Shown here: piece after piece, positions 8,921 to 63,934 of the stretch
Layout of the letters: the number at the start of each line of letters is the position of its first letter
How positions within the stretch are numbered: the stretch's first letter is position 1
Source of the DNA: Candidatus Nealsonbacteria bacterium
GTDB lineage: Bacteria; Patescibacteriota; Minisyncoccia; Minisyncoccales; JAGMDC01
Assembly: GCA_030612885.1 (NCBI GenBank)
Contig: JAUWMZ010000001.1
Location: forward strand, 83,193 to 147,192
Reading direction: 5' to 3'
Length of the DNA stretch: 64,000 nucleotides
The notes under the pieces: model-generated
Seen by the model: the letters and a program-made list of their open reading frames with translations, nothing else
Database searches by the model: none
What the model was told of the DNA's origin: nothing
Position numbers and translations under genes: made by a program

Positions 8921-10243
8921 ATGAATAAAAAAATAACTGGTCAAATTGTAATATCATCGGCTAAGATTTCTGAGACGCAGAAGAAAGTAAAAAATATTTC
9001 TAATTTCAAAAAAAATATTGAAGCAGTTTTAGAAAAAAACATTACTGAAATTTTGGAAAACATTTTAGTCGGTTCAATAAATTTAGATACTTCAGACATC
9101 CATATTGAGCCAAGAAAAAAAGATACAAAAATTAGAGTGAGAATTGACGGCATACTTCAAGAAGTTATTTCTCTCCAGACAGATATATATCAAGCCCTGT
9201 CTTCCAGAATCAAACTCTTAAGCGGTATAAAATTAAATATTTCTGACCGTGCCCAGGACGGCAGATTTTCTATTATTTTTGAAAAAAGCGAGAAAGAAAA
9301 GGAAGACAAGACAATCATAGAAATCAGGACTTCCTTCCTGCCCTCTGAATACGGAGAGTCAATTGTTTTAAGAATTTTAAATCCTAAATCCCTGATTGAG
9401 CTTGAAGCCCTGGGATTAAGAAAGGATTTGCTGGCTACTTTTTTGAAAGAGATAAAAAGGCGAAATGGAATGGTTATTGTTACCGGTCCCACTGGTTCTG
9501 GAAAGACCACCACTCTTTATACTTTTCTAAAAAAAATTCAAAGACCGCAAATTAAAATCATAACCATTGAAGACCCGATTGAATACCATCTCAAAGGGGT
9601 TTCCCAAACCCAAGTGAAGCCGGAAAAAGGATATGACTTTGCCAATGGTCTTCGTTCTATTATGAGGCAGGACCCGGACGTCATTCTGGTAGGAGAAATC
9701 AGGGACTTGGAAACAGTAAAAATTGCTATTCAGTCAGCCCTGACCGGCCATTTAGTTTTGACCACCTTACATACTAATGATGCTGCCGGAACCATTGCCC
9801 GGTTAATTAATTTGGGCGCCAAAGCGAACAATATTGGACCGGCTGTCAATGTGGTAATTGCCCAAAGATTGGTAAGAAAAGTTTGTCAGAAATGCGGTAG
9901 ATTAGAAAATGCCTCTAAAATAGAAATTGAGAAAATAAAAAATGGGTTGAAGGGTATTTCCAAAGAAATTAAAGTTCCAAAAATTGGCACGGGGTTGAAG
10001 ATTTTAAAAGCAAAAGGATGTAAAGATTGCAACCAAACTGGTTATAGAGGAAGGGTAGGAATTTTTGAAGCAATTTTAATTGACGAGGAAATAGAAAAAT
10101 TTATTTTAGAAAATCTTTCTATTGCCGCTTTGAAAGAAAAAGCGCTGAAAAAAGGAATGGTAACAATGAAGCAGGACGGCTTGCTTAAGGTTTTAAACAA
10201 AGAAACCAGCATAGAAGAAGTAGAAAGGGTTACCGGAGAGTAA
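8921..10243 (+). CDS. pilB: Type II/IV secretion family ATPase (GspE/PilB-like)
   Basis: Walker A GPTGSGKTT; Asp and His boxes; tetracysteine CQKCGR...CKDCNQTGYRGRVGIFE. Confidence 0.8.
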   Translation: MNKKITGQIVISSAKISETQKKVKNISNFKKNIEAVLEKNITEILENILVGSINLDTSDIHIEPRKKDTKIRVRIDGILQEVISLQTDIYQALSSRIKLLSGIKLNISDRAQDGRFSIIFEKSEKEKEDKTIIEIRTSFLPSEYGESIVLRILNPKSLIELEALGLRKDLLATFLKEIKRRNGMVIVTGPTGSGKTTTLYTFLKKIQRPQIKIITIEDPIEYHLKGVSQTQVKPEKGYDFANGLRSIMRQDPDVILVGEIRDLETVKIAIQSALTGHLVLTTLHTNDAAGTIARLINLGAKANNIGPAVNVVIAQRLVRKVCQKCGRLENASKIEIEKIKNGLKGISKEIKVPKIGTGLKILKAKGCKDCNQTGYRGRVGIFEAILIDEEIEKFILENLSIAALKEKALKKGMVTMKQDGLLKVLNKETSIEEVERVTGE

Positions 10244-10310
10244 ACCCCGCACCTTTTATGGATAGTTTCGTTTTTTTTACACAAAGTGCAATCCATAAAA
10301 GGTGCGGGGT
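10244..10310 (+). terminator. Long GC-rich hairpin terminator downstream of pilB
   Basis: accccgcaccttttatggat ... atccataaaaggtgcggggt forms a stem of about 19 bp flanking a T-tract. Confidence 0.65.
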
Positions 10311-10449: not shown

Positions 10450-11748
10450 TTGATTATAATGGATATTGTGAATTTGTCAACCCCAACACCAAACAAACAT
10501 AGCTTTGTTGTAGCGCGGGGGTCAATCCTTTTGCTTTTGCTTGTTAGTTTTTTGTTTTTTGAAATCGGTTTTAAGGCCGATTTTATTTTAGCCGATGAAT
10601 CGTTTAATGTAGTAATCAATGAAATTACCTGGATGGGCACAAAAGAATTTTACAACGATGAGTGGATTGAATTATACAATAATAGCGATTCAGCTGTAAA
10701 TCTTAGTGGCTGGACATTAAAAGCTGATGATGGCAGCCCGGAAATTGAACTCTCTGGCAGGATTTTGAGTAAAAGTTTTTATTTGCTGGAAAGGACTGAT
10801 GACGAAACAGTGGCTGGTGTTTTGGCCGACCAAATCTATAAAGGAGGATTGGCTAACAAAGGCGAATGTCTAAAGCTTTTTGATGAACAGGAAAATTTGA
10901 TTGACAAAGTGGACTGCTCTGACGGGTGGTTTGCCGGAGACAACAAGACCAAACAAACAATGGAAAGGTCTGTTGAGGTCAAGCTTCAACAGGTTCATTG
11001 GCAGACCAGCCAAGAGCCGGGCGGCACCCCAAAAAAACAGAATAGCCAACCAGCTGAGGAATCGGTTGAGGTCAAACCTCAACCGTTCCATCAACAGGAG
11101 GTTATTGATGTCAAACTTCAACAGCCTAATTATGGCGTAGTTTATCCTTCCGGGATAGTTGTCAACGAAGTGCTCCCCTCTCCTGAAGGCCCTGATGCAG
11201 AAAATGAATGGATAGAAATTTTCAATGAAAATAATCTTGAAGTTGACATTTCCGGCTGGAAAATTTCTGACACTGTCGGCAGTGTCAAGAGTTATATTTT
11301 TCCCAAAGGAACAAAAATTTCCGGCAAAGGATTCTTGCTTCTCAACAGGCCAAAAACAAAAATTACTTTAAATAATAGCGGTGAGGGATTAAAAATTTTT
11401 AATCCCAATGGAAAAATAGTTGATGAAATAAATTTTGGAAAAGCGCTTTTGGGACAGTCGTATAATAAGTTTGACTCTCAATGGCAGTGGTCAGAGAATC
11501 TAACTCCAGGCTCTGCAAACATCGCCTCATCGGTAAAAAAAGACCTTTTAGAAAACAGTTCCCCAGAAGTTATACAGAAAAATCTGGAGGAGAACAAAAA
11601 TCCTCTTTTATTGTCTTCGCTGTTAGAATCTCCATTGTCAGAGAAAAACAAGAGTTCTATATTTAAATTGTTAATGATTGCTTTATCTATTAGTGTTTGT
11701 TTTGGGTTTTTAATTTTATTTCTAAAAAAGAAATTGAAAACTGATTAA
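10450..11748 (+). CDS. Lamin-tail-domain (LTD) protein with a C-terminal TM anchor
   Basis: Two LTD modules (VVINEITWMG...EWIELYN...LSGWTLK and IVVNEVLPSP...EWIEIFN...ISGWKI); C-terminal hydrophobic helix. Confidence 0.6.
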   Translation: MIIMDIVNLSTPTPNKHSFVVARGSILLLLLVSFLFFEIGFKADFILADESFNVVINEITWMGTKEFYNDEWIELYNNSDSAVNLSGWTLKADDGSPEIELSGRILSKSFYLLERTDDETVAGVLADQIYKGGLANKGECLKLFDEQENLIDKVDCSDGWFAGDNKTKQTMERSVEVKLQQVHWQTSQEPGGTPKKQNSQPAEESVEVKPQPFHQQEVIDVKLQQPNYGVVYPSGIVVNEVLPSPEGPDAENEWIEIFNENNLEVDISGWKISDTVGSVKSYIFPKGTKISGKGFLLLNRPKTKITLNNSGEGLKIFNPNGKIVDEINFGKALLGQSYNKFDSQWQWSENLTPGSANIASSVKKDLLENSSPEVIQKNLEENKNPLLLSSLLESPLSEKNKSSIFKLLMIALSISVCFGFLILFLKKKLKTD

Positions 11749-11786
11749 AAATTTGGTAAGATAAAAGTATAATAGATTAAAAAATT

Positions 11787-12521
11787 ATGTCAGGCCATTC
11801 CCATTTTTCAAGTATAAAACATAAAAAAGAGATTACTGATGCCAAGCGGGGCAAGGTTTTTTCTAAATTAGCCCGGCAGATTTCTGTTGCTGTCAGAGAA
11901 AAAGGAAGCGACCCGGAAACCAATTCCGGTTTGCGTTTGGTTATTGAAAAAGCCAAGGAGTTTAATATGCCTAAGGACAATATAGAGAGAGCCATAAAAA
12001 GAGGAACAGGCGAATTAGCAGAAGAGAAGTTAGAGGAAGTAATTTATGAGGCATATGGTCCGGGTGGAATAGCTATTATTATTGAGGGAATTACTGACAA
12101 TAAAAACAGGGCATTAGGAGAAATTAAGCAGATTTTAAGTCAGGCAGGAGGAAAGCTGGCTGACAGCGGCTCGGTAAAATGGATGTTTGAAAGAAAAGGA
12201 GCTATAATAATCATTTATCATTTATCATTGACCAATAATCAGTCAAAAGAAGATTTAGAGATGAAAGCAATAGAAGCAGGCGCGGATGATATTTATTGGC
12301 ATAATGATATATTAGATGTTTACACCAAACCCGAGAATTTGGAAAAGGTTAAGAAAAATTTGGAAAATCAAGGAATCAAGGTTGAGTCCGCCTCACTTGA
12401 CTGGGTGGCAAAAGATGAAATTGAATTAGAAGAAAAAGAGAAAAAAGCAGCAGAAAGATTATTTGAATTATTGGACGAAAACGAAACAGTCCAAGAAATT
12501 TATTCTAATCTTAAAACATAA
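11787..12521 (+). CDS. yebC: YebC/PmpR-family DNA-binding regulator
   Basis: MSGHSHFSSIKHKKEITDAKRGKVFSKLARQISVA is the family signature; carries an in-frame AT-rich repeat insertion (YHLSLTNN). Confidence 0.9.
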   Translation: MSGHSHFSSIKHKKEITDAKRGKVFSKLARQISVAVREKGSDPETNSGLRLVIEKAKEFNMPKDNIERAIKRGTGELAEEKLEEVIYEAYGPGGIAIIIEGITDNKNRALGEIKQILSQAGGKLADSGSVKWMFERKGAIIIIYHLSLTNNQSKEDLEMKAIEAGADDIYWHNDILDVYTKPENLEKVKKNLENQGIKVESASLDWVAKDEIELEEKEKKAAERLFELLDENETVQEIYSNLKT

Positions 12522-12523
12522 AT

Positions 12524-13018
12524 ATGATTATTTTAGGCATTGATCCGGGAACGGCCACAACTGGATATGGAATTATAAAAGCGAAAAATTTAAAGCAAAG
12601 AGCAAAAAATAATTTAAAATGCTTGAGCTATGGCTGTATTAAAACCAGTCCGGAGTTTAGCGACGGCGAACGATTAAAAAAAATAAATTGGGAACTAAAT
12701 AAAATAATTCGAGAATATAAGCCAAAAGTTTTAGCAGTGGAAAGCATCTTTTTCTTTAAAAACTTAAAAACTGCTATGCCGGTAAGCCAGGCAAAAGGAG
12801 TAATATTGTTTACGGCCGCCAAGAAAAAAATACCTGTTTATGAGTTTACACCACTCCAAGTTAAAATGGCAATTACGGGCTATGGAAGGGCAGAGAAAAA
12901 AGAGATTCAGAAAGCGATAAAAAGCATTCTGAATTTAAAAGAAATACCAAAACCAGATGATGCGGCAGATGCTTTAGCCATAGCGGTTTATTATACAAAT
13001 CTTGTAAAAACGAGTTAA
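12524..13018 (+). CDS. ruvC: Holliday junction resolvase RuvC
   Basis: MIILGIDPGTATTGYGII N-terminus and size. Confidence 0.85.
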   Translation: MIILGIDPGTATTGYGIIKAKNLKQRAKNNLKCLSYGCIKTSPEFSDGERLKKINWELNKIIREYKPKVLAVESIFFFKNLKTAMPVSQAKGVILFTAAKKKIPVYEFTPLQVKMAITGYGRAEKKEIQKAIKSILNLKEIPKPDDAADALAIAVYYTNLVKTS

Positions 13019-13066
13019 TATTTAGAGGTCAAACCTCTAAATATTGAAAAATTTTCACTACGGGGG

Positions 13067-13094
13067 TTGACAAAATTTCTAAAAAAAATATAAT
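13067..13094 (+). promoter_or_regulatory. Consensus sigma70 promoter: TTGACA, 16-nt spacer, TATAAT
   Basis: -35 element at 13067-13072 and -10 element at 13089-13094; a hairpin lies in the 5' UTR at about 13141-13180. Confidence 0.55.
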
Positions 13095-13193
13095 AGTGAT
13101 ATAGATAGAAAAAGGTCGATGATAGTTAGAGTAGAAATTAAAAATCACTCTTTTTTTATTTAGTATAAAGAGAGTGATATTCTTTAAAAAATT

Positions 13194-13514
13194 ATGATTA
13201 ACGAATTTATTAGTCAAGAAGAAGAAACTCCTAAAGAGGAAGAAAAAGAGGAAGAAAAAGAGGAAGAAAAAACTTCTTCTGAAGAAGTAACTAGTCAGGA
13301 TACAGAAGAAGGAACTCCTGAAGAAGGCGCTACTGAAGGAGGAGAAGAAACTCCTAAAACTGAAGGAACTCCTGAAACTGGAGAAGGTGAAGAAGAGAAA
13401 GAAAAAGAAGGAGAAAAAGAAGGAGAAAAAGAAGGAGAAGAAAAAGAAGGAGAAAAAGAAGGAGAAGAGAAAGAAGAAGAGAAAGAAGAAGAGAAAGAAA
13501 CTCCAGTTGTATAG
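13194..13514 (+). CDS. Highly acidic low-complexity E/K/G-rich protein
   Basis: EEKEEEK repeats; consensus promoter upstream and intrinsic terminator downstream support the plus strand. Confidence 0.45.
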   Translation: MINEFISQEEETPKEEEKEEEKEEEKTSSEEVTSQDTEEGTPEEGATEGGEETPKTEGTPETGEGEEEKEKEGEKEGEKEGEEKEGEKEGEEKEEEKEEEKETPVV

Positions 13515-13515
13515 T

Positions 13516-13548
13516 TTAAAAACTCCCACCTATGGCGGGAGTTTTTAA
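13516..13548 (+). terminator. Intrinsic terminator
   Basis: aaactcccacctatggcgggagttttt hairpin followed by a U-tract. Confidence 0.6.
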
Positions 13549-13598
13549 ACACGGGTTTGTGCTTAGCTAAGCTAAGCACAACTAAAAGCTAAGCACAA

Positions 13599-14813
13599 CT
13601 AAATAATTTTAACAAACTTTCTTTTGCCTGCCTGGATTATCGTTCCTTTTTTTACTTTAATATCTTTCTGCCAGTCATTCTGAATTTCATTATCAATTTT
13701 CACTCCTTTTTGCAAAACCAATCTTTTAGCTTCTGATTTTGAGGAAGCTATTTTTGTTTTTACCAGTAAATCTAAAATATTATAAACCCCTGGTTTTAAT
13801 TTGAAACCGGGTATTTTAGAAGGCAGTTTCTTTTCTTTAAAAATTCTATTAAATTCTTTTTCTGCTTTTTCTGCCACACTTTTATTGTGATACATAGTCA
13901 CAATTTCTTTCGCTAAAATAGATTTTGCCTTTTTAGGGTTAAGTTTTTTGGATTTTATATCTTGCGCAATTTGTTTGATTTTGTTTAGGGGAATTTCTGT
14001 CCAATGGGTAAAACAAGAAGCAATAACTTCATCAGGCAAAGCCATTATTCTACCGTACATATTATTTGGTTTTTCGTCCAAGCTAATATAGTTTCCTTCG
14101 CTTTTTGACATTAACATTTTTTTTGTTTTTGGGTCTTCTAAGATTTCTTTTGCTATAACAAATTTTTGTTTCTTTTTGTAAATTTTCATCAAATCTCTTC
14201 CTACCAACATATTGAAAATTTGGTCACTCCCCCCTAATTCAATATCAGTGTCTAACTTTACGGAATCGTATCCTTGCAATAACGGGTATAAAAATTCATG
14301 GAAAAAAATTTCTTTTCCCATTTTCTTTCTTTTTCTGAATATGTCCCTTGCCATTATCTTTTGGATGGTTATTTTACTCATTAAATCCATTATTTCTTCC
14401 AGTTTCATCTTTCCAAACCATTGACTATTGAAAGCAATCTTTACTGAATTTTTTTTAGAATTAAAATCTAAAATTTTCGCTGCCTGCCTTTGATAATTTT
14501 TGTAATTTTCCAAAATTTGTTTTTTAGAAAGTTGTTTGCGCACGGAAAGCTTTCCTGTTGGGTCTCCTATTCTCGCTGTGAAATCCCCAAATAATAAAGT
14601 AACTTGATGCCCTAATTTTTGAAACCGTTTTAGGATTAATAAATTAGTTCCGTGGTCAAGATGTAAATTAGGCGCAGTAGGGTCAATGCCGAAATAAATT
14701 TTTAATTGTTTGTTGGATTTCAAAATTTCTTCCATTTTTCCTTTGGAAGGATAAATTTTTTTAATCGCTCTTGTTAAAACCTCTTCAATTTTTTTTGGAT
14801 TGGTATCTATCAT
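13599..14813 (-). CDS. tyrS: Tyrosine--tRNA ligase
   Basis: HIGH-class motif (PNLHLDHG), KMSKS (KMLMSKSEG), C-terminal S4 domain. Confidence 0.9.
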   Translation of the reverse strand: MIDTNPKKIEEVLTRAIKKIYPSKGKMEEILKSNKQLKIYFGIDPTAPNLHLDHGTNLLILKRFQKLGHQVTLLFGDFTARIGDPTGKLSVRKQLSKKQILENYKNYQRQAAKILDFNSKKNSVKIAFNSQWFGKMKLEEIMDLMSKITIQKIMARDIFRKRKKMGKEIFFHEFLYPLLQGYDSVKLDTDIELGGSDQIFNMLVGRDLMKIYKKKQKFVIAKEILEDPKTKKMLMSKSEGNYISLDEKPNNMYGRIMALPDEVIASCFTHWTEIPLNKIKQIAQDIKSKKLNPKKAKSILAKEIVTMYHNKSVAEKAEKEFNRIFKEKKLPSKIPGFKLKPGVYNILDLLVKTKIASSKSEAKRLVLQKGVKIDNEIQNDWQKDIKVKKGTIIQAGKRKFVKII

Positions 14814-15564
14814 AATTTTGAGGGACAGGGGAGGGACAGTCCCTCCCCTGTCCCTCTACGATATTTAGATGACGTGTCTTAAGAAAATATCCAGAAACGA
14901 GAAGGTCTTTGGCTAATTTCCGATATTCTTGTCTGGCTTTTTTAATATTATTAGAGACAAGAGATAAAATAAATTTATCCTGGGTAATTCCATCCTCTCT
15001 TAATCCAAGATGAACAGGATAACTATTCCAGGGGTCTCTCTCGGCTTCCTCTAAAAGTTTTGTCAAAATGCTTTTTGAAATATTTTGGTTATTAATACGC
15101 TGAAGTTTTTCCAGAACTTTATTTAGATTAATATAAATGGAAGTGGGTAAAAGAGCATTTTCTCCAAGTTGTTCTGCTTTAAATCTATCTTGGAACAAAT
15201 GCCCTACCCGAGAATACTTTTTATTTATATGGAGACCAAAACTAGTATGGAGACTACCAATAAATTTACTAGGAGGAACTTCAGAAGTTTGTTCAATTAA
15301 ATAATGAACATGGTTAGGAAGTAAATTATAGGCATGAATGTTCACTGGATATTTTTTAAGAAATTCTTTAATTTTATAAAGATAAAATATAAAATCTTCT
15401 TTCCTGTGAAAGATATTTTCTTTAGCAACTCCTCTACTAAAAATATGCCAAAAACTTCCTTTATAAAATTTTCGTAGTTGTCTCATATATAGAAAAAGAT
15501 TTATGAACTGTCCTTTTCTTATCCCTTCTTTATTTATAATAGCAAAATTATTAGAATTTGCCAA
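14785..15564 (-). CDS. REP-associated tyrosine transposase (RAYT; IS200/IS605 Y1 HuH family)
   Basis: HuH motif NHVHYLIE; downstream tyrosine region GHLFQDRFKAE...YINLN; flanked on both sides by the same palindrome; the 3' end runs into the REP and overlaps the tyrS start, so the true start and stop are uncertain. Confidence 0.7.
   Translation of the reverse strand: MANSNNFAIINKEGIRKGQFINLFLYMRQLRKFYKGSFWHIFSRGVAKENIFHRKEDFIFYLYKIKEFLKKYPVNIHAYNLLPNHVHYLIEQTSEVPPSKFIGSLHTSFGLHINKKYSRVGHLFQDRFKAEQLGENALLPTSIYINLNKVLEKLQRINNQNISKSILTKLLEEAERDPWNSYPVHLGLREDGITQDKFILSLVSNNIKKARQEYRKLAKDLLVSGYFLKTRHLNIVEGQGRDCPSPVPQNYDRYQSKKN
14820..14856. repeat. REP-like GC-rich palindrome (copy 1) flanking the RAYT
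   Basis: gagggacaggggagggac a gtccctcccctgtccctc: 18-bp arms in an AT-rich genome. Confidence 0.85.
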
Positions 15565-15565
15565 A

Positions 15566-15613
15566 CAAACAAGGGACAGGGGAGGGACAGTCCCTCCCCT
15601 GTCCCTTGTTTGC
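15566..15613. repeat. REP-like GC-rich palindrome (copy 2, extended arms)
   Basis: caaacaagggacaggggagggacagtccctcccctgtcccttgtttg; the direct repeat tttgccaaa lies on both flanks. Confidence 0.85.
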
Positions 15614-15644
15614 CAAATCAGGCAAAATCAATTAAAGTAAATAT

Positions 15645-17609
15645 ATGGTTAAAAGAGTTTATCATCGGAAAATTTTGGGAGAGACAAAAAGGATGAAGAG
15701 AATTAAAACAGTTTTAAAATTGTTTGTTTTTGCTTTTATTTTTTTTGTGTTTTTTTGTTCGTTATTGTTTTTCTATTATGCTAAAGACCTGCCCAGACCG
15801 GAAAAATTTATGGAAAAACAGTTTATTGAATCAACAAAAATCTATGACCGAACCGGCGAGGTTCTTTTATATAATATTTATGGGGAAGAAAAGAGAACTA
15901 TAGTGTCTATAGAAAAAGTGCCAGAACAATTAATCCAAGCCGTCATCACAGCCGAAGACAGAAGCTTTTACAAGCATCACGGCATTGATTACAAAGGAGT
16001 TATGCGGGCAATATTAGTAAACTTTAAATTAAAAAAGCCGGCCCAGGGCGGCTCCACTATTACCCAGCAGTTGATCAGGTCCAGTTTTTTAACTCTCAGT
16101 AAAACTGCTGAAAGGAAAATAAGAGAGATTATTTTAACCATAGAATTAGAAAGAAAATATACTAAGGACCAGATAATGGAATGGTATTTAAACCAAATCC
16201 CTTTTGGCTCTAATGCTTACGGCGTAGAAGCAGCCAGCCAGACCTATTTTAAAAAATCTGTTCAGGACTTGTCCTTGGAAGAATCAGCTATTCTTGCTTC
16301 TCTTATTTGCGGGCCGAGCCGTCTCTCTCCTTATGGCCAGAATAAAGACAGGTTGTTGGGAAGAAAAGATTATGTTTTAGAGGGAATGGCAGATGAGGGA
16401 TATATATCAAAAGAAGAAGCAGAAGAGTCAAAGAAAATAGAAATATCCTTTGCCCCTAAACTTGTGGAAATTAAAGCTCCTCATTTTACTCTTTATGTTA
16501 AAAGCCAGTTAGAAAGAAAATATGGAGAAAAATATGGAAAAGAATTTTTAAAAGAAAACGGATTAAAGGTGTACACTTCTTTGGACTGGGAGCTTCAGCA
16601 ATTAGCAGAAAAAGCAGTGGAAGAAAGAGCAAAAATTAATGAAGGCTATCGGGCCTATAATGCTTCCTTGGTTGCTTTAAATCCGAAAAACGGCGAGGTT
16701 TTAGCAATGGTCGGCTCAAAAGATTATTTTGGTGAGTCATATCCTGAAGGATGTAATCCGGAAAAGGACTGTCTGTTTACACCCAAATTGAATATTCCCA
16801 TTTACGGCATTGGCAGGCAGCCTGGCTCTGCTTTCAAACCATTTGTTTATGTTACTGTCTTTCAAAACGGCTATGACGATAAAACTATTGTTGTAGACGA
16901 ACAAACAAACTTTGGTCTTTGGGGAGATGAAGAATATATTCCTCAAAACTATGACGGAAAATTCAGGGGAGAAGTAACTTTAAGAGAGGCACTGGCGCAA
17001 TCAATTAATGTGCCGGCAGTAAAAGTATTAGTGAATTTTTGCGGCTCTACGGTGCAGGAAAGTATTGAAAATAGTGTTCAGACCGCTCAAAAATTAGGCA
17101 TTACTACCTTAAGGCCTTCTTATGGACCAGCTATTGTTTTAGGTGGCTGGGAAGTAAAATTACTGGAAATGACTTCTGCTTACGGTGTTTTTGCTACCGA
17201 GGGATTAAAGGTGCCGCCAGTGACTATTTTAAGAATTGAAGATGCTGATGGAAAAATAATTAAGGAAAACAAAAAAACTGCCCAAAGGGTTTTAGGTATT
17301 CAAGAAACCCGCCTGCTCAACGACATTCTTTCAGATAATGAAGCCAGAGCGCCGCTGTTCGGTTTTAACTCCTCTTTATATATTAAGGGGTATGATACAG
17401 CAGTAAAAACAGGAACTACCGAAGAGTATAGAGATGCCTGGACTATTGGATACAGCCCTTCTCTGGTCTGCGGTGTCTGGGCGGGAAATAATGACAATTC
17501 TTCAACAAATAAAAAACCAGGGGTAACCCTGGCAGCTCCTATTTGGAAAGCATTTATGTTAGAAGCGCTTCAAAAATTCCCAAAACAAGATTTTCCGGCT
17601 AGTGATTAG
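15645..17609 (+). CDS. mrcA: Class A penicillin-binding protein (PBP1A: glycosyltransferase plus transpeptidase)
   Basis: GT51 motifs (EDRSFYKHHGID, GGSTITQQL); transpeptidase region SxxK/KTGT (KTGTT). Confidence 0.9.
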   Translation: MVKRVYHRKILGETKRMKRIKTVLKLFVFAFIFFVFFCSLLFFYYAKDLPRPEKFMEKQFIESTKIYDRTGEVLLYNIYGEEKRTIVSIEKVPEQLIQAVITAEDRSFYKHHGIDYKGVMRAILVNFKLKKPAQGGSTITQQLIRSSFLTLSKTAERKIREIILTIELERKYTKDQIMEWYLNQIPFGSNAYGVEAASQTYFKKSVQDLSLEESAILASLICGPSRLSPYGQNKDRLLGRKDYVLEGMADEGYISKEEAEESKKIEISFAPKLVEIKAPHFTLYVKSQLERKYGEKYGKEFLKENGLKVYTSLDWELQQLAEKAVEERAKINEGYRAYNASLVALNPKNGEVLAMVGSKDYFGESYPEGCNPEKDCLFTPKLNIPIYGIGRQPGSAFKPFVYVTVFQNGYDDKTIVVDEQTNFGLWGDEEYIPQNYDGKFRGEVTLREALAQSINVPAVKVLVNFCGSTVQESIENSVQTAQKLGITTLRPSYGPAIVLGGWEVKLLEMTSAYGVFATEGLKVPPVTILRIEDADGKIIKENKKTAQRVLGIQETRLLNDILSDNEARAPLFGFNSSLYIKGYDTAVKTGTTEEYRDAWTIGYSPSLVCGVWAGNNDNSSTNKKPGVTLAAPIWKAFMLEALQKFPKQDFPASD

Positions 17610-19066: not shown

Positions 19067-20458
19067 TTAAACAGAGTATATCCTTTGCTTTATTAAATTA
19101 ACCTCTTCAAAAAGCCTTTCATTTTCTTTGATTTCTCTGGATATTTTTTCAAAAGCATGGATAGCTGTGGTATGGTCTTTTCCGCCGAACTTCCGGCCGA
19201 TAAAAGGGAAAGAAGAATTTAAAGATTCTCTTAAAATATACATTGCTATCTGTCGCGGGAAGACAATTTCTTTTTTTCTTGAAGCGGCAATAAGGTCTTT
19301 TTCTTTCAAATCATAGAATTCAGCCACTGTTTGAATAATTTTTTTAGGACTAACCATTCTTGTCGGAGCGGAAATTATGTTTTTTAAAAGTGTCTTAGCT
19401 ATTTGGCAATCGGGAATTTGATTATTTAGTTTTTGATAAGCGATTAATCTGTTCAAGGCGCCCTCTAATTCCCTAACATTTTCTTTAATATTGGAACTAA
19501 TATATTCTAAAACATCATCAGAAAGATTTATTCCTTTTTCCTGGGATTTAACTTTTAAAATAGCCATTCTTGTTTCATAGTCAGGAAAACCAATATCAGC
19601 AATCATTCCTCCTTCAAATCGGGAGCGCAACCGTTCCTCTAAGCTGGAGATGGCTTTTGGGGGACGGTCTGAAGAAAGGATTATCTGCCTGTTTCTTTCA
19701 TATAAGGTATTGAAAATATGGAAAAATTCCTCTTGGGTTTTTTCTTTGCCGGCTAAAAACTGAATATCATCAATAATTAAGACATCAATTTTTCGGTGGT
19801 TATTTTTAAACTCCTCAATGCTGTGATTTTTAATTGAAGAAACAACACCAGAAATAAATTTTTCACAGGTAATATACCTTGTTTTCTTGTCTGGAAAATT
19901 TTTAATTGTTTTGTTGCCAATAGCTTGGATGAGATGAGTTTTGCCTAAACCTACTCCGCCGTAAACAAATAAAGGATTATAAATTGAGCCGGGATTTTTA
20001 GAGATAGCCCAAGCCGCAGCATGTGGAAGTTCGTTGTAGGGTCCCACTACAAAGTTTTCAAACGAATAACGAGGGTTTAGATTAGTGACTTTATCGGCTT
20101 TAAATTCTTCAAATTGGAGCTGTTCTTCGTCTGTGTAGTGGTTTGTAATTCGGGAGCGCTCTTTTTTCACTTCCAGTCCGGTCCTGGGTACTTCATATTT
20201 TATTTCTTTAACATTTTCATTTAAGCTGTGGGCAATTTTTAAAATGGTTTTATTGTATTTATTTTCTAACCATTCTTTAGAGAAATGATTAGGGACTGAA
20301 ATCACGATTTTTCCTTCTTGTTTTAAAAGGATTTTAGTGTTTTTAAACCAGGTCGCAAAATTGGCCGGAGAGGTATTGAATTGAATTTGGGCAAGTATTG
20401 CTTGCCAGAGTTCTTCCTTGGTCATATCACCACTAATGATACCACGAATTAGAATCAC
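19067..20458 (-). CDS. dnaA: Chromosomal replication initiator DnaA
   Basis: AAA+ Walker A GGVGLGKTHL, Walker B LIIDDIQ, C-terminal DNA-binding domain. Confidence 0.95.
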   Translation of the reverse strand: MILIRGIISGDMTKEELWQAILAQIQFNTSPANFATWFKNTKILLKQEGKIVISVPNHFSKEWLENKYNKTILKIAHSLNENVKEIKYEVPRTGLEVKKERSRITNHYTDEEQLQFEEFKADKVTNLNPRYSFENFVVGPYNELPHAAAWAISKNPGSIYNPLFVYGGVGLGKTHLIQAIGNKTIKNFPDKKTRYITCEKFISGVVSSIKNHSIEEFKNNHRKIDVLIIDDIQFLAGKEKTQEEFFHIFNTLYERNRQIILSSDRPPKAISSLEERLRSRFEGGMIADIGFPDYETRMAILKVKSQEKGINLSDDVLEYISSNIKENVRELEGALNRLIAYQKLNNQIPDCQIAKTLLKNIISAPTRMVSPKKIIQTVAEFYDLKEKDLIAASRKKEIVFPRQIAMYILRESLNSSFPFIGRKFGGKDHTTAIHAFEKISREIKENERLFEEVNLIKQRIYSV

Positions 20459-31042: not shown

Positions 31043-31420
31043 ATGCCTTATCGTCATCAACAATTCGTCAATAGAGAAATATATCACATTATCATCAGGG
31101 GAATCGATGATAATTTAATCTTTAGGAACGCAGACGATTATTATCGAGCTATTTTTTCTATCTATGAATTTAATAATGCTAACGCGGTAGAAATTTATAA
31201 AAGGCGCCGTGAAATTCAAACCATAAAAAAACATTTAAAGAACAAGCCGGGGGAGGCCGGGCCTCCCCCGAGCTTTTCGTTAGGATTTTGGACGCGTATA
31301 CGCAGAAGATTTGACAAATTTGGTATAGATGCTATAATTATGGCAGCACTCTACAATAGAATATATGATAAAGGCTATGCGATGAAAGTGCTGATAGAAA
31401 GTAAAAAAAATAGGAGGTGA
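31043..31420 (+). pseudogene. RAYT/IS200-like N-terminal fragment carrying an in-frame GC palindrome
   Basis: REIYHIIIRGIDDNLIFRNADDYYRAIFSI parallels the RAYT N-terminus GSFWHIFSRGVAKENIF; no HuH motif; the palindrome ccgggggaggccgggcctcccccg at 31247-31270 is translated as GEAGPPP. Confidence 0.4.
31247..31270. repeat. Perfect GC-rich palindrome inside an ORF
   Basis: ccgggggaggccgggcctcccccg. Confidence 0.8.
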
Positions 31421-35541: not shown

Positions 35542-36456
35542 TTAGTCCCCTTTAAAGGTTTTTGTCAAATTGAGCCAGTCCTGGATGGTCAGGGTTTCAG
35601 CTCGCTGAGATGGTTGAATATTATTTTGAATCAGCCATTTTTTAATTTTTTCCTTGTCTAATTTCAGTTCTTTGACAAACTCAGGACAAGCTCCTGAAAA
35701 ATTATTCAAAATCTGTTTTCTGGGATGAGAAAATCCAGCCTTTACAATCTTGAAGAACAAATCAACGAGTCCGGGTCTCGTTGTTAGTTTTTGAGGTTGA
35801 GGAGTTATTTTTATAATTGCGGAGTCAACCTTTGGTTCTGGCCAAAATGATTTTTTAGAAATGTAGTCAATAATCTTTGCTTGAGCGTAAAATTGAACCG
35901 AAACAGCTAAAATACTCATTTTTGGTGGCTTAGCGCCCGCCTCGCCCGCCGAGCGGGCTCGGCGAGGCGGGCAAATTCTTTGAGCCATTTCTTTCTGAAC
36001 TATGAGAATCATCTGGCAAGGTCTCATCTGGCGATGTTTGACATCGCCAGCTTCATCAACAGCCTCAAGAAATTTTCTGATGACTGGCGCAGTTAAATAA
36101 AAAGGCAAATTACTAAGTATCTTGTATCTTATATCTCGTATTTTGTATTTCAAAATGTCTTCTTGGACGATTTCAATATTTTGAAAATCCTTTAAGGTTT
36201 CTTTTAGAATCTCGCACATTTTTATGTCTTTTTCGCAAGCAATAACTCTTTTTGCTTTTCTTGCTATTTCTTGAGTTAAAGTGCCAATGCCTGGTCCGAT
36301 TTCCAAAATAGTATCAAAAGGTTTTAAATCAGCTGATTTGATAACTTTTCTAACTACTGATTTGTCAATCAAAAAATTCTGGCCAAATTTTTTTGATGGT
36401 CTAATATTATACTTTTTTAAGATTTCTTTGATTGTTTTTTTTGATGCCAGATTCAT
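35542..36456 (-). CDS. rsmA: 16S rRNA (adenine1518/1519-N6) dimethyltransferase RsmA/KsgA with an in-frame GC-rich palindromic insertion
   Basis: FGQNFLIDKSVVRKVI...ILEIGPGIGTLT SAM motif; the insertion encodes PRRARSAGEAGA between QRICPP and KPPKMSILAVSVQ. Confidence 0.85.
   Translation of the reverse strand: MNLASKKTIKEILKKYNIRPSKKFGQNFLIDKSVVRKVIKSADLKPFDTILEIGPGIGTLTQEIARKAKRVIACEKDIKMCEILKETLKDFQNIEIVQEDILKYKIRDIRYKILSNLPFYLTAPVIRKFLEAVDEAGDVKHRQMRPCQMILIVQKEMAQRICPPRRARSAGEAGAKPPKMSILAVSVQFYAQAKIIDYISKKSFWPEPKVDSAIIKITPQPQKLTTRPGLVDLFFKIVKAGFSHPRKQILNNFSGACPEFVKELKLDKEKIKKWLIQNNIQPSQRAETLTIQDWLNLTKTFKGD
35934..35972. repeat. GC-rich imperfect palindrome inside ksgA
   Basis: gcccgcctcgcc...ggcgaggcgggc arms in an otherwise AT-rich gene. 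Confidence 0.8.
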
Positions 36457-44232: not shown

Positions 44233-44460
44233 TATTTACTTTCTTTTCCAGTGGGGCTATTATTAAGTTAGAACAATTAAATATTCAAATTGCCTAAGTC
44301 CTTGTTTTAGGATATGGCATAAAAACCCGTCTAAGGTATCAAGCTCCTCGTCAGAGCACCTTAGACGGGTTATATCCCGAAAGGGGTATAGGTAGCGAAA
44401 GCTATCGCTGGCGGGGAGCTTTGTATTTTCAACCAGCGAATAAGACATCAATAAAAAATT

Positions 44461-62302: not shown

Positions 62303-63781
62303 ATGGAAATTCCTAAAGAAGTAAAATTTGTAATTGAGAAATTAAAAACTCAAGGATTTGAGACCTATCTTGTTGGTGGCTGTGTTAGGGATTTGTTGCG
62401 TGGAAAAGAGCCATTGGATTGGGATATAGCAACTAATGCCAAACCAGAAGAAATTGAAAAGATTTTTCCGAATAGCTTTACAGATAATAAATTTGGCACT
62501 GTGGCAGTTTTAACTAAAAGTAAAGACCCGGCCTTAAAGGGAATTGAAATTACTCCTTACAGAATAGAATCAAAATATACTGACAAAAGGCATCCTGACA
62601 AGATACAATGGGCAAAAACTCTAAAAGAAGATTTAAAGAGGAGGGATTTTACCATAAATGCAATGGCCCTAAAAATGAGGGACAGTCCCTCCCCTGTCCC
62701 TCCCCTGTCCCTCGTTGACCTTTTTGGAGGGCAGGAGGATTTAGAAAACAAAATCATTCGGGCAGTGGGTGAGCCGGAACACAGGTTTCAGGAAGATGCT
62801 TTGCGCTTGATGAGAGCAGTAAGATTTGCTGCTGTTTTAGGAGAGGGGTGGAAAATTGAAGCAAAAACCGAGAAAGCAATTAAGAAAAATGCTGGTTTGC
62901 TTCAAATGATTTCTCAAGAAAGAATCAGGGATGAATTAATAAAAATGATAATGTCTGAAAGAGGAGCTGATGGTATAGAAATGTTGCGAGAACTCGGACT
63001 TTTAAAATATATAATTCCAGAATTAGAAGAAGGATATGGAGTTTCCCAGAACAAACATCATATTTACGAGGTTTATGAACATTCTTTGCGCTCTTTGAAA
63101 TATGCCTGCGAAAAAGGATTTAATAAATATGTTCGCTTGGCCGCCCTTTTGCATGATATTGGCAAGCCCAGAACTAAGCAAGGACAGGGGCTTGACGCTA
63201 CTTTTTACAACCATGAAATCGTTGGCGCTAAAATGACTATCCGTCTTTTGAATCGGCTGAAGTTTTCTAAAAAAGACATTGAGAAAATAGTTAAATTGGT
63301 GCGTTATCATTTGTTTTATTATAATGTTGACGAAGTTGGAGAATCATCGGTGCGGCGCTTGGTGCGTCAGGTTGGGTTGGAAAATATGGATGAACTTTTA
63401 CAAGTGAGGATGGCTGACAGAATTGGGTCTGGCGTGCCAAAGGCAGAGCCGTATAAATTAAGGCATCTAAAATATATTATTGAAAAAGTTTCCCAGGATC
63501 CTATTTCAGTAACACGGCTTAAAGTAAACGGCGAGGATGTAATGAAAATTTTAAAAATTAAGCCGGGTCCGAAAATAGGACAGCTTTTAGATATTTTACT
63601 TGGTTATGTTTTGATTGAACCAAGCAAAAATAAAAAAGATTTTTTAGAAAAAGAAATGAATAAATTAGGCAAGATTTCTGAAAACGAATTAAAAGCGCTG
63701 GCAGAAAAAGCGCGCAAAGAAAGAATGGAAATTGTGATGAAACAAGACGAAATGACAAAAAAGAAATACTGGGTGACGTAG
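62303..63781 (+). CDS. cca: CCA-adding tRNA nucleotidyltransferase / poly(A) polymerase-family enzyme with an HD domain, carrying an in-frame REP insertion
   Basis: GGCVRDLLLGKEP...DWD head motif, RRDFTINAMA, HD motif LAALLHDIGKP; the REP copy at 62677-62714 is translated as RDSPSPVPPLSLV. Confidence 0.85.
   Translation: MEIPKEVKFVIEKLKTQGFETYLVGGCVRDLLRGKEPLDWDIATNAKPEEIEKIFPNSFTDNKFGTVAVLTKSKDPALKGIEITPYRIESKYTDKRHPDKIQWAKTLKEDLKRRDFTINAMALKMRDSPSPVPPLSLVDLFGGQEDLENKIIRAVGEPEHRFQEDALRLMRAVRFAAVLGEGWKIEAKTEKAIKKNAGLLQMISQERIRDELIKMIMSERGADGIEMLRELGLLKYIIPELEEGYGVSQNKHHIYEVYEHSLRSLKYACEKGFNKYVRLAALLHDIGKPRTKQGQGLDATFYNHEIVGAKMTIRLLNRLKFSKKDIEKIVKLVRYHLFYYNVDEVGESSVRRLVRQVGLENMDELLQVRMADRIGSGVPKAEPYKLRHLKYIIEKVSQDPISVTRLKVNGEDVMKILKIKPGPKIGQLLDILLGYVLIEPSKNKKDFLEKEMNKLGKISENELKALAEKARKERMEIVMKQDEMTKKKYWVT
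62677..62714. repeat. Partial REP copy (duplicated right arm) in frame inside cca
   Basis: gagggacagtccctcccctgtccctcccctgtccctcg; same family as the RAYT-flanking REPs. Confidence 0.85.
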
Positions 63782-63934
63782 CTCGGGAAGCTAATTTTTA
63801 GTACACGCGATTTTTTCCAGCGAAAAATCGCTGCTACTCACGAATTGCCGAGCACTCAACAAGTTGAGTGCTCGGACCAAGCCAATTCGCTGCGGATTGT
63901 CCTAAAAATTACTTCCCTCGCTCGTTATTTATTA
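63782..63934 (+). other. GC-rich, highly structured element of about 150 nt upstream of tRNA-Pro; unclassified
   Basis: Hairpin gcgattttttccagcgaaaaatcgc; perfect 28-bp palindrome ccgagcactcaacaagttgagtgctcgg at 63848-63875, nested in cgaattg/caattcg arms; no match recognised to SRP, RNase P or tmRNA. Confidence 0.4.

Follow-up and report, generated by a model that had tools for sequence, protein, structure and literature searches.

The 64-kb stretch of DNA analyzed here (part of contig JAUWMZ010000001.1, Candidatus Nealsonbacteria bacterium; in the following "the window") carries on its minus strand a gene for a Y1 tyrosine nuclease of the HUH type (14785..15486), which lies between two copies of a GC-rich hairpin repeat. 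Gene and hairpins probably form a REPtron/TIRtron-like system, in which an intact chromosomal gene of the TnpArep type (RAYT, for REP-associated tyrosine transposase, REP standing for repetitive extragenic palindrome; or TIRYT) is bracketed by its cognate repeat. The protein is intact, under selection and of the right fold, the bracket recurs in other loci, and the repeat varies together with the protein. Copies of the repeat are dispersed, some of them in frame within conserved genes, and related populations differ in insertions, in unit number and in the orientation of a short segment.

The initial annotation of this DNA had proposed a RAYT flanked by its REP palindromes in a genome of the Candidate Phyla Radiation (CPR) type. 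A TnpArep/RAYT-type Y1 protein with a palindromic repeat of its own is indeed present; the names RAYT and REP fit less well in that the protein does not reach the NCBIfam cut-off, the repeat has no GT[AG]G foot, few copies were found and the nearest relatives are TIRYT (subclass 2.1) proteins. The placement of the host is borne out: judged from the source names of the closest cca and tyrS homologues, it is Patescibacteria/Parcubacteria-like. The window is AT-rich, with a GC content of about 34%.

The Y1 gene and its flanking palindromes

The 3' side of the gene is formed by a perfect 37-nt palindrome (14820..14856), GAGGGACAGGGGAGGGAC-A-GTCCCTCCCCTGTCCCTC, with arms of 18 nt and a central A, which is composed of the 11-nt unit GTCCCTCCCCT and its complement and stops 6 nt short of the ATG of tyrS. 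On the 5' side lies a perfect 47-nt palindrome (15566..15612; 23+1+23), which contains the common core (15572-15606) and a stem extension, CAAACAA/TTGTTTG, specific to that copy. The bracketing of the gene by the same palindrome, as first described, is thus confirmed. Folded as single-stranded DNA (ssDNA), the two elements reach −22.1 kcal/mol (z = −8.3) and −28.3 kcal/mol (z = −10.4), respectively. When up to three mismatches are allowed, the window contains six occurrences of the 16-mer arm GGGACAGGGGAGGGAC (0.13 expected), a number that none of 100 shuffles reached.

The only solo copy in the window lies in cca (62303..63781, plus strand). It had been taken for a partial copy and turned out to be a full-length 37-nt isomer (62677..62713, plus strand) at a conserved intragenic site, with arms of 7 and 29 nt and a central A, GAGGGAC-A-GTCCCTCCCCT-GTCCCTCCCCT-GTCCCTC, that is in frame, keeps the cca frame open and encodes the peptide RDSPSPVPPLSL within a loop of the CCA-adding enzyme. 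A further stretch just 5' of the Y1 ATG, GAAGGGATAAGAAAAGGACAG (15508..15528, minus strand), might be a decayed element arm; this assignment, of low confidence, comes from its resemblance by eye to the 5' element of contig L032. No Rfam family matches the elements. The tetranucleotide GTAG, considered as a foot of the element, was rejected as coincidental at a single copy: it is found only at 14856-14859 (minus strand), and the other copies read T/A-GAGGGAC with varied flanks.

Within the minus-strand open reading frame (ORF) 14785..15564 the probable start is the ATG at 15486. The product of 233 amino acids, of which the conserved part (14857-15486) makes up 210, is identical to the called NCBI protein P0001 on a 170-kb contig. 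It contains the motif NHVHYLIE and matches Pfam Y1_Tnp (PF01797) with E = 5e-12 and 46 bits (cut-off 23). The best NCBIfam model is REP_Tyr_transpos (NF047646), whose cut-off of 80 bits is not reached by the window protein (34.8 bits) or by the family representative P0059 (28.7 bits); the IS200 model (NF033573) gives an even lower score of 19.9 bits (cut-off 55). In an alignment of 30 sequences H59-x-H61, Y118 (in S-x-Y-I-N-L-N), R93, G95 and N122 are invariant, and among seven genes the ratio of nonsynonymous to synonymous substitutions (dN/dS) is 0.05-0.13, with synonymous sites mostly saturated (dS >1 in most pairs). By these ratios the protein is under purifying selection and, judged from the retained HxH pair and catalytic tyrosine, it is a catalytically intact nuclease/ligase.

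The AlphaFold (AF2) model of the protein has a pLDDT of 91. When compared with the PDB by Foldseek, it finds 4ER8 (4er8_A), the structure of E. coli TnpArep bound to a REP hairpin, in first place (E = 1.2e-7, TM 0.72), ahead of the TnpA proteins of IS608 and ISDra2. A profile search of the PDB yielded 4ER8 as the sole match, with an E-value (0.66) that is not significant on its own, and phmmer, run with the single sequence, found nothing but noise in the PDB; it was the fold search that decided. The protein has a C-terminal extension of about 90 amino acids in common with subclass-2.1-like proteins. Elsewhere in the family the gene ends at the repeat junction with TGA or TAA followed by GGGAC; in the window this stop is missing and the ORF runs through the hairpin for about 23 codons beyond the junction, the resulting tail being disordered in the model.

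About 120 homologues of approximately 210 amino acids were found, all from Patescibacteria-type sources and some of them named "RayT" by IMG; in a library-wide profile search the whole family falls into one cluster at 50% identity. The next relatives are proteins of 190-230 amino acids and proteins of about 320 amino acids, the latter aligned over their first 180-195 residues. A DnaA_C-type helix-turn-helix (HTH) domain is present in four of the five ~320-residue proteins checked (relatives named: P0119, P0376, P0386, P0400 and P0413), and the two checked against the NCBIfam REP model score at its cut-off (80-84 bits). The proteins of the window family (210-233 amino acids) have no Bac_DnaA_C match. 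A Y1 domain combined with a DnaA_C-type HTH is the architecture of TnpAY1 subclass 2.1, which is equated with TIRYT (Quentin et al., PMC6006769; Di Nocera et al., PMC3733652). Since the nearest relatives have this architecture and the window proteins are without the HTH, we regard the latter as a short, HTH-less offshoot of the subclass 2.1/TIRYT group. As to carriage by phages, neither the element nor the Y1 protein family was found in IMG/VR contigs.

Association of gene and repeat in other loci

An exact-pattern scan of species-representative genomes and a metagenome scan for the core pattern yielded 41 further loci, three of them stretches of one metagenome-assembled genome (MAG; JBDRST01) and 38 of them metagenome contigs. 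The reading in the initial annotation would have failed with a palindrome confined to its three sites and an ORF without the catalytic tyrosine; neither applies, given these 41 loci and the invariance of Tyr118 in the alignment. JBDRST01, the single match among the species representatives, has a 71%-identical homologue between two identical 37-mers in a different gene neighborhood and, besides this bracket, two solo copies.

Six complete loci (L001, L012, L019, L021, L030 and L039; 66-76% identity) have the same element family on both sides of the Y1 gene, at distances of 6-65 nt before the ATG and 0-20 nt past the stop. In L017, L032 and L035 the same element is present on the one side visible, and in L050 a family element is located 5' and a related GGGACAG palindrome 3' of the gene. 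The bracket arrangement is thereby seen in ten loci, the window included. Although synonymous sites in the neighboring genes have reached saturation, the flanking palindromes are identical.

Homologues with only 60-63% identity (L042, L043, L044 and L051) are flanked by different GC-rich repeats: GGGGACAG-loop-CTGTCCCC on both sides of the gene in L043, GGGACAGGGTA/GGGACAGGGAT units on both sides in L051, GTGTCAGGCAC units with a second, solo copy 0.7 kb off in L044, and GGTCTGACCCA units in L042. Three of these four repeats have an 11-nt period, as in the window family. The presence of other repeats at the more diverged homologues indicates that the repeat changes with the protein, and a repeat family specific to the protein lineage is a signature of REPtrons (PMC6006769).

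Just upstream of the Y1 gene in L043 there is also a 24-nt direct duplication, ttctttcggcaggcaaggggacag, composed of flank and left hairpin half (9935-9985).

Modular structure and polymorphism of the elements

Each copy is built around one core, GAGGGAC-N-GTCCCTC, to which m complementary units AGGGGAGGGAC are joined at one end and n direct units GTCCCTCCCCT at the other, giving lengths of 26, 37, 48 and up to 80 nt. No stop codon occurs in the element in any of the six frames. Some copies have perfectly complementary outer extensions of their own, CAAACAA/TTGTTTG in the window, TGAAT/ATTCA in L001 and CGCCA/TGGCG in L034, which suggests that one arm was templated from the other.

That the repeat might be polymorphic between strains, a question raised at the outset, is answered by orthologous sites in related populations, which differ by 11-nt units, by a 12-nt flip and by presence or absence of the element (for the empty site see below). 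Among closely related populations, L040 and L008, with identical flanks, differ by exactly one unit (11 nt), and L004/L015 differ from L029 by two units (22 nt). L010 and L041 have the same total length and differ by the inversion of a 12-nt segment (TGTCCCTCCCCT vs. AGGGGAGGGACA), by which the center is shifted by one unit and the central base changed from T to A. In cca the relatives have arms of 28 and 7 nt, the window arms of 7 and 29 nt, both with a central A; the two isomers fit the outcome that would be expected of two successive flips. Flips and unit steps were found at the site upstream of FemAB and twice over in cca.

Contigs L004, L005, L010, L015, L028 and L036 start or stop within or next to an element. 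This indicates that hairpin arrays break short-read assemblies, and copy numbers obtained from MAGs are therefore lower bounds. L004 and L029 have a tandem 13-nt repeat, tatccataattag, beside the hairpin array, downstream of the element.

In-frame copies in conserved genes

Approximately 11 distinct solo sites, about half of all solo sites, are intragenic, and the host ORFs are intact. In-frame solo copies were found in cca (window and seven other contigs), lepA (L002), rplC (L003), uvrA (two different sites, L007 and L033), recG (L016), ligA (L026), mltG/yceG (L009), and in genes for a class I aminoacyl-tRNA synthetase (aaRS; L018) and a GlyRS-like class II aaRS (L022). The same nucleotide string is read in three frames and on both strands. 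At the element the cca product has eight residues more than 6ibp and the lepA product eight more than 5imq; the rplC copy leaves no net gap against other uL3 proteins. The asymmetric isomer with one 7-nt arm is found at 10 of 11 intragenic sites vs. 13 of 31 other sites (Fisher p = 0.006), and the two intragenic (cca) isomers tested have a much weaker fold (−6 to −9 kcal/mol). The G-rich arm is on the sense strand at 10 of the 11 intragenic sites, the copy in the window cca being the exception.

The cca loop between RDFT[IV]NA.A. and [IV]D[PL]F.G, at about 62660-62720 in the window, could be located in 110 of the 120 closest cca homologues, where it is 6-28 residues long, only 6-9 in many relatives. 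The peptide RDRGGTGEGQSL is present in 14 of these homologues, a mutated copy, RDRRGTGEKQSL, in one, and RDSPSPVPPLSL in the window only. Other loops appear to be encoded by other palindromes or by AT-rich repeats; the DNA was looked at in L048 and L049. In L049 the DNA confirms a loop, GGGTCAGACACAGGTCTGACCC, that contains the word GGTCTGAC, which also occurs in the repeats on the flanks of the L042 Y1 gene. Element-bearing cca proteins have down to 72% mutual identity, and the nearest relatives without the element are 80-89% identical. Over four cca lineages the 36-nt element is 100% identical while the 120-nt flanks are 73-85% identical; had the element evolved like its flanks, the chance of this identity would be about 1e-5 to 3e-3 per pair. 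Either the cca site has been repeatedly re-targeted or the copies are held uniform. From the sequences compared, the cca loop looks like a recurrent repeat sink in Parcubacteria.

The upstream copy and its empty site

The palindrome upstream of the Y1 gene is accompanied by a 9-bp direct repeat, TTTGCCAAA (15557..15565 and 15609..15617, plus strand), the second copy of which overlaps the last 4 nt of the palindrome. The relative L047, whose tyrosyl-tRNA synthetase (TyrRS) is 74% identical, has the gene for a class A penicillin-binding protein (PBP) and tyrS back to back with a spacer of 68 nt, a single TTTGGCAAA and no insert. Aligned to L047, the window has 52 extra nt, i.e., the palindrome and the second TTTGGCAAA. 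Because the empty site has a single copy, the 9-bp repeat, already noticed in the initial annotation, is a real duplication. Between the upstream palindrome and the Y1 ATG there are about 28 nt of the ancestral PBP-tyrS spacer, and the upstream hairpin is therefore an insertion separate from that of the gene with the downstream hairpin. In two further relatives (TyrRS 79-80% identical) tyrS is preceded by a tRNA gene, and the Y1 gene is absent.

A target-site duplication of consistent length was not found across the copies, the clear 9-bp repeat being seen only at the upstream copy in the window. Short direct repeats occur beside some other copies (GTATT in L003, GGTT in L007).

Proposed mechanism and alternatives

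We propose that the Y1 protein would recognize the hairpin on ssDNA exposed during replication or repair, nick it via Tyr118 with the help of an HxH-bound metal, always at the same place within or beside a unit, and then rejoin the ends. Short hairpin modules could in this way be copied to new sites, loops of essential genes included, where only in-frame, stop-free insertions would survive. Units would be gained and lost in steps of 11 nt, the center of symmetry would be moved by inversion of the 12-nt segment, and the copies would be kept identical while the surrounding DNA diverges.

A more specific version of this proposal, which we put forward only tentatively and hold to be rather doubtful, is that the arrays of 11-nt units are live substrates of the Y1 protein, that the unit steps and the length-keeping flips that toggle the central base at one and the same site are its in vivo footprints, and that the cca loop is a "landing pad" overwritten by successive repeat families. 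If true, these CPR populations would have preserved in nature the steps by which TnpArep-type proteins mobilize and reshape REPs, which for the classical REPs are still to be worked out, and such systems would persist in highly reduced genomes and rewrite the loops of essential proteins there.

Several points weigh against a REPtron/TIRtron-like system. That the Y1 protein binds and cleaves the element and causes the changes described is something we infer from sequences and a predicted fold. The copy number appears low for a REP family, and the repeats are without a GT[AG]G guide or foot. A 9-bp duplication is not an expected product of the "peel-and-paste" single-strand chemistry of HUH enzymes, and flips and unit changes could be produced at hairpins by replication slippage or template switching, enzyme-free. 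The data are short-read assemblies in which some elements lie at contig ends. Finally, the neighborhood of the Y1 gene is different in each locus: relatives are without it at the tyrS site, and a tblastn search with tyrS and the PBP gene of the window against all loci found no other locus with a Y1 gene beside them. The gene therefore looks mobile, in contrast to the RAYTs of Pseudomonas, which are described as single-copy and vertically inherited.

This apparent mobility would be accounted for if the gene were an autonomous insertion sequence (IS) of the IS200/IS605 type, the palindromes its left and right end hairpins, the whole unit transposing and the solo copies leftovers. The varied neighborhoods, with tyrS and PBP adjacent in the window only, the relatives with a 74-80% identical TyrRS and no Y1 gene at the tyrS site, and a fold in common with the TnpA of IS608 and ISDra2 all agree with this view. 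We nevertheless consider it unlikely, because the ends are identical perfect palindromes rather than the distinct, imperfect, subterminal hairpins of a left end (LE) and right end (RE), and because neither the ORF lists nor the called genes contain an adjacent tnpB. The low IS200 score, below that of the REP model, and the subclass-2.1-like C-terminal extension point the same way. Moreover, the ancestral spacer between upstream palindrome and ATG means that the block is not one contiguous insertion, and solo copies, with their variable internal arrangement of units, outnumber the gene-linked ones.

A second possibility is that the hairpins owe nothing to the Y1 protein: they could be miniature elements moved by another enzyme, e.g., a DDE transposase generating 9-bp target duplications, or by none (template switching, slippage), and the gene a frequent landing site or a user of the hairpins as regulatory or terminator structures. 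The duplication confirmed by the empty site and the short direct repeats at L003 and L007 favor this view. Template switching at quasi-palindromes can yield palindromic extensions and segment flips, and both the copy-specific extensions and the 12-nt flips could have arisen in this manner. Yet the duplication length is inconsistent across copies, and the repeat family shifts as the Y1 protein diverges. A cognate repeat on both sides of the gene in six complete loci and in two loci with other repeat families is hard to obtain by chance landing. As terminators the hairpins were rejected, since no T-run follows them and many copies lie inside ORFs. We thus judge this explanation, too, to be improbable. 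Least credible by far is that the intragenic copies are not insertions at all and represent convergent low-complexity coding for loops rich in Gly, Arg and Asp on which selection acts as protein. At 10 of 11 sites the sense strand has the G-rich arm and so encodes hydrophilic, Gly-rich peptides; this and the rplC copy without net gap would be understandable on this basis. It is effectively refuted because the DNA string is independent of frame (three are used) and of strand; in addition, the 36 nt are fully identical in cca genes with far less similar flanks, the peptide encoded at this site by the copy in the window cca is of quite another kind, rich in Pro and Ser, and around the Y1 gene the identical string stands in DNA that is non-coding.

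Neighboring genes and other features of the window

The Y1 gene and its 3' element are directly followed by tyrS (13599..14813, minus strand), whose ATG (14813) is overlapped by the Y1 ORF of the window by 29 nt. The end of the hairpin is only 6 nt from this ATG, too close to accommodate a Shine-Dalgarno sequence; tyrS might be translationally coupled, or the hairpin might influence its expression. The class A PBP (transglycosylase/transpeptidase) is encoded divergently from the Y1 gene (15645..17609, plus strand) and abuts tyrS directly in L047. Beside the 3' end of tyrS there are overlapping low-complexity ORFs (13029-13579), which on the plus strand encode Glu/Lys-rich sequence (EEEKEEEK).

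Besides the one intact Y1 gene the window contains a fragment that is probably a piece of a second gene of this type: an ORF of 125 amino acids (31043..31420, plus strand), of which only the N-terminal 52 residues correspond to the N-terminus of the Y1 family by hhalign (83% probability, E = 9e-6). The HUH and tyrosine motifs are absent from it, and it has no Pfam match. Within this ORF lies another GC-rich palindrome of 23 nt, CGGGGGAGGCC-G-GGCCTCCCCCG (31248-31270).

The closest relative, L048 (cca 87% identical), has a gene for a large serine recombinase and a LAGLIDADG-type ORF near cca (11766-13328 and 19314-20294); at the matching place the window has neither, and cca is flanked by tRNA genes. 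A match to the LOOT RNA (Rfam RF03000) lies at 44291-44406 (plus strand) with 91.8 bits, well over the gathering score. Further perfect or near-perfect inverted repeats, which may be terminators or belong to other repeat families, are found at 10244-10310 (20-nt arms, 27 nt apart), 11063-11085, 36028-36050 and 63848-63875.

Significance and comparison with known systems

Research on TnpArep-type proteins and REPs has been confined almost entirely to large proteobacterial genomes, and there is no settled view yet of the way in which REPs are copied. The system described here extends the host range of REPtron-like systems to a lineage with very small genomes and offers a compact substrate for the biochemistry of a Y1 enzyme. 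Since the repeat is short, perfectly symmetric and modular, a comparison of related populations reveals unit gain and loss, flips, insertions and replacement down to the single nucleotide. Many copies would add 8-14 residues to the conserved products of essential genes (cca, lepA, rplC, uvrA, recG, ligA, aaRS), which may explain part of the puzzling hypervariability of loops in CPR housekeeping proteins. On the practical side, the hairpins interrupt short-read assemblies and make ORF calls too long, the read-through ORF of the Y1 gene in the window being an example.

With IS200/IS605 elements (IS608, ISDra2) the system has in common the catalytic fold and, as its likely mode of action, the recognition of hairpins on ssDNA; it differs by having no distinct LE and RE and no tnpB, by its longer protein, and by solo hairpins that are dispersed and internally variable. 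A more distant analogy is provided by the terminal hairpins of parvoviruses, whose flip and flop forms are resolved by the HUH nickase Rep/NS1. There, too, an HUH nickase is part of the system and the asymmetric interior of a hairpin changes its orientation at constant length, so that the 12-nt flips may be comparable; however, the parvoviral process is replicative and takes place at the ends of linear genomes, and of fold-back synthesis there is no sign in the elements described here.

The in-frame copies resemble the intragenic REPs and the RPE-4/6 elements of Rickettsia (Di Nocera et al., PMC3733652), which likewise are palindromic repeats in unbroken conserved genes, with uvrA, DNA ligase, aaRS and recombination helicases as hosts. 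The list of host genes agrees closely with that of Di Nocera et al. (PMC3733652), and in-frame intragenic REPs must therefore be regarded as already known. The elements described here are shorter (26-48 nt, 8-14 amino acids), are linked to a Y1 gene, and show isomerization at the same site and replacement by other repeat families.

The nearest relatives in sequence, over about 180-195 aligned residues, are the TIRYT proteins of TIRtrons, i.e., TnpAY1 subclass 2.1 (PMC3733652; PMC6006769). Common to both are flanking inverted or self-complementary repeats, small repeat families and a Ser-containing motif past the catalytic helix; a word of the GGGGWSAS type in the repeats may be a further common trait. 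The motif GGGGWSAS (PMC3733652) is matched at 8 of 8 positions by GGGGACAG in L043 and at 7 of 8 by AGGGACAG in the window element. Unlike TIRYT, the window family (210-residue proteins) is without the HTH, and its flanks are self-complementary hairpins instead of one pair of long terminal inverted repeats.

The REPtrons of E. coli, Pseudomonas and Stenotrophomonas, composed of a RAYT/TnpArep gene and REPs or bacterial interspersed mosaic elements (PMC2817692; PMC3479197; PMC6006769), share with the window system a Y1 HUH protein with HxH and tyrosine, whose fold is nearest to 4ER8, a gene located between its own palindromic repeats, a lineage-specific repeat family, and dispersed copies that sometimes supply the stop codon of the gene. 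In contrast to them, the window family has perfect stems of 11-nt units in variable number without a GT[AG]G foot, apparently only a few copies in a genome where REPs number hundreds, solo sites of which about half lie within genes, and a protein with a different C-terminal region that scores under the NCBIfam cut-off. Its host is of the sub-megabase CPR type, whereas non-IS TnpAY1 genes have been reported mainly in large genomes (PMC6006769).

REP-flanked RAYT/TnpArep genes, GGGGWSAS-flanked TIRYT genes and in-frame REPs in repair and aaRS genes have thus been described before (PMC2817692; PMC3479197; PMC3733652; PMC6006769). The statement in the initial annotation that REP/RAYT systems are classically described in Proteobacteria needs correcting in so far as REP-type repeats and RAYT-like genes are documented well beyond this group (PMC6006769; PMC3733652). 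The 2018 survey (PMC6006769), in which non-IS TnpAY1 genes were found mostly in large genomes, covered complete genomes and does not mention candidate phyla. Literature searches combining RAYT/REP with CPR, Patescibacteria or Parcubacteria returned nothing relevant, the one co-mention being a KEGG K07491 match in an archaeon. With systems of this kind beyond Proteobacteria and in-frame REPs already known, the novelty lies in the CPR host and the architecture of the element, not in the principle. New in comparison with the known systems are the host lineage, a protein family without HTH, modular hairpins of 11-nt units without a GTAG foot, an apparently low copy number combined with a high share of intragenic copies, and isomers at the same site that differ by units and flips.

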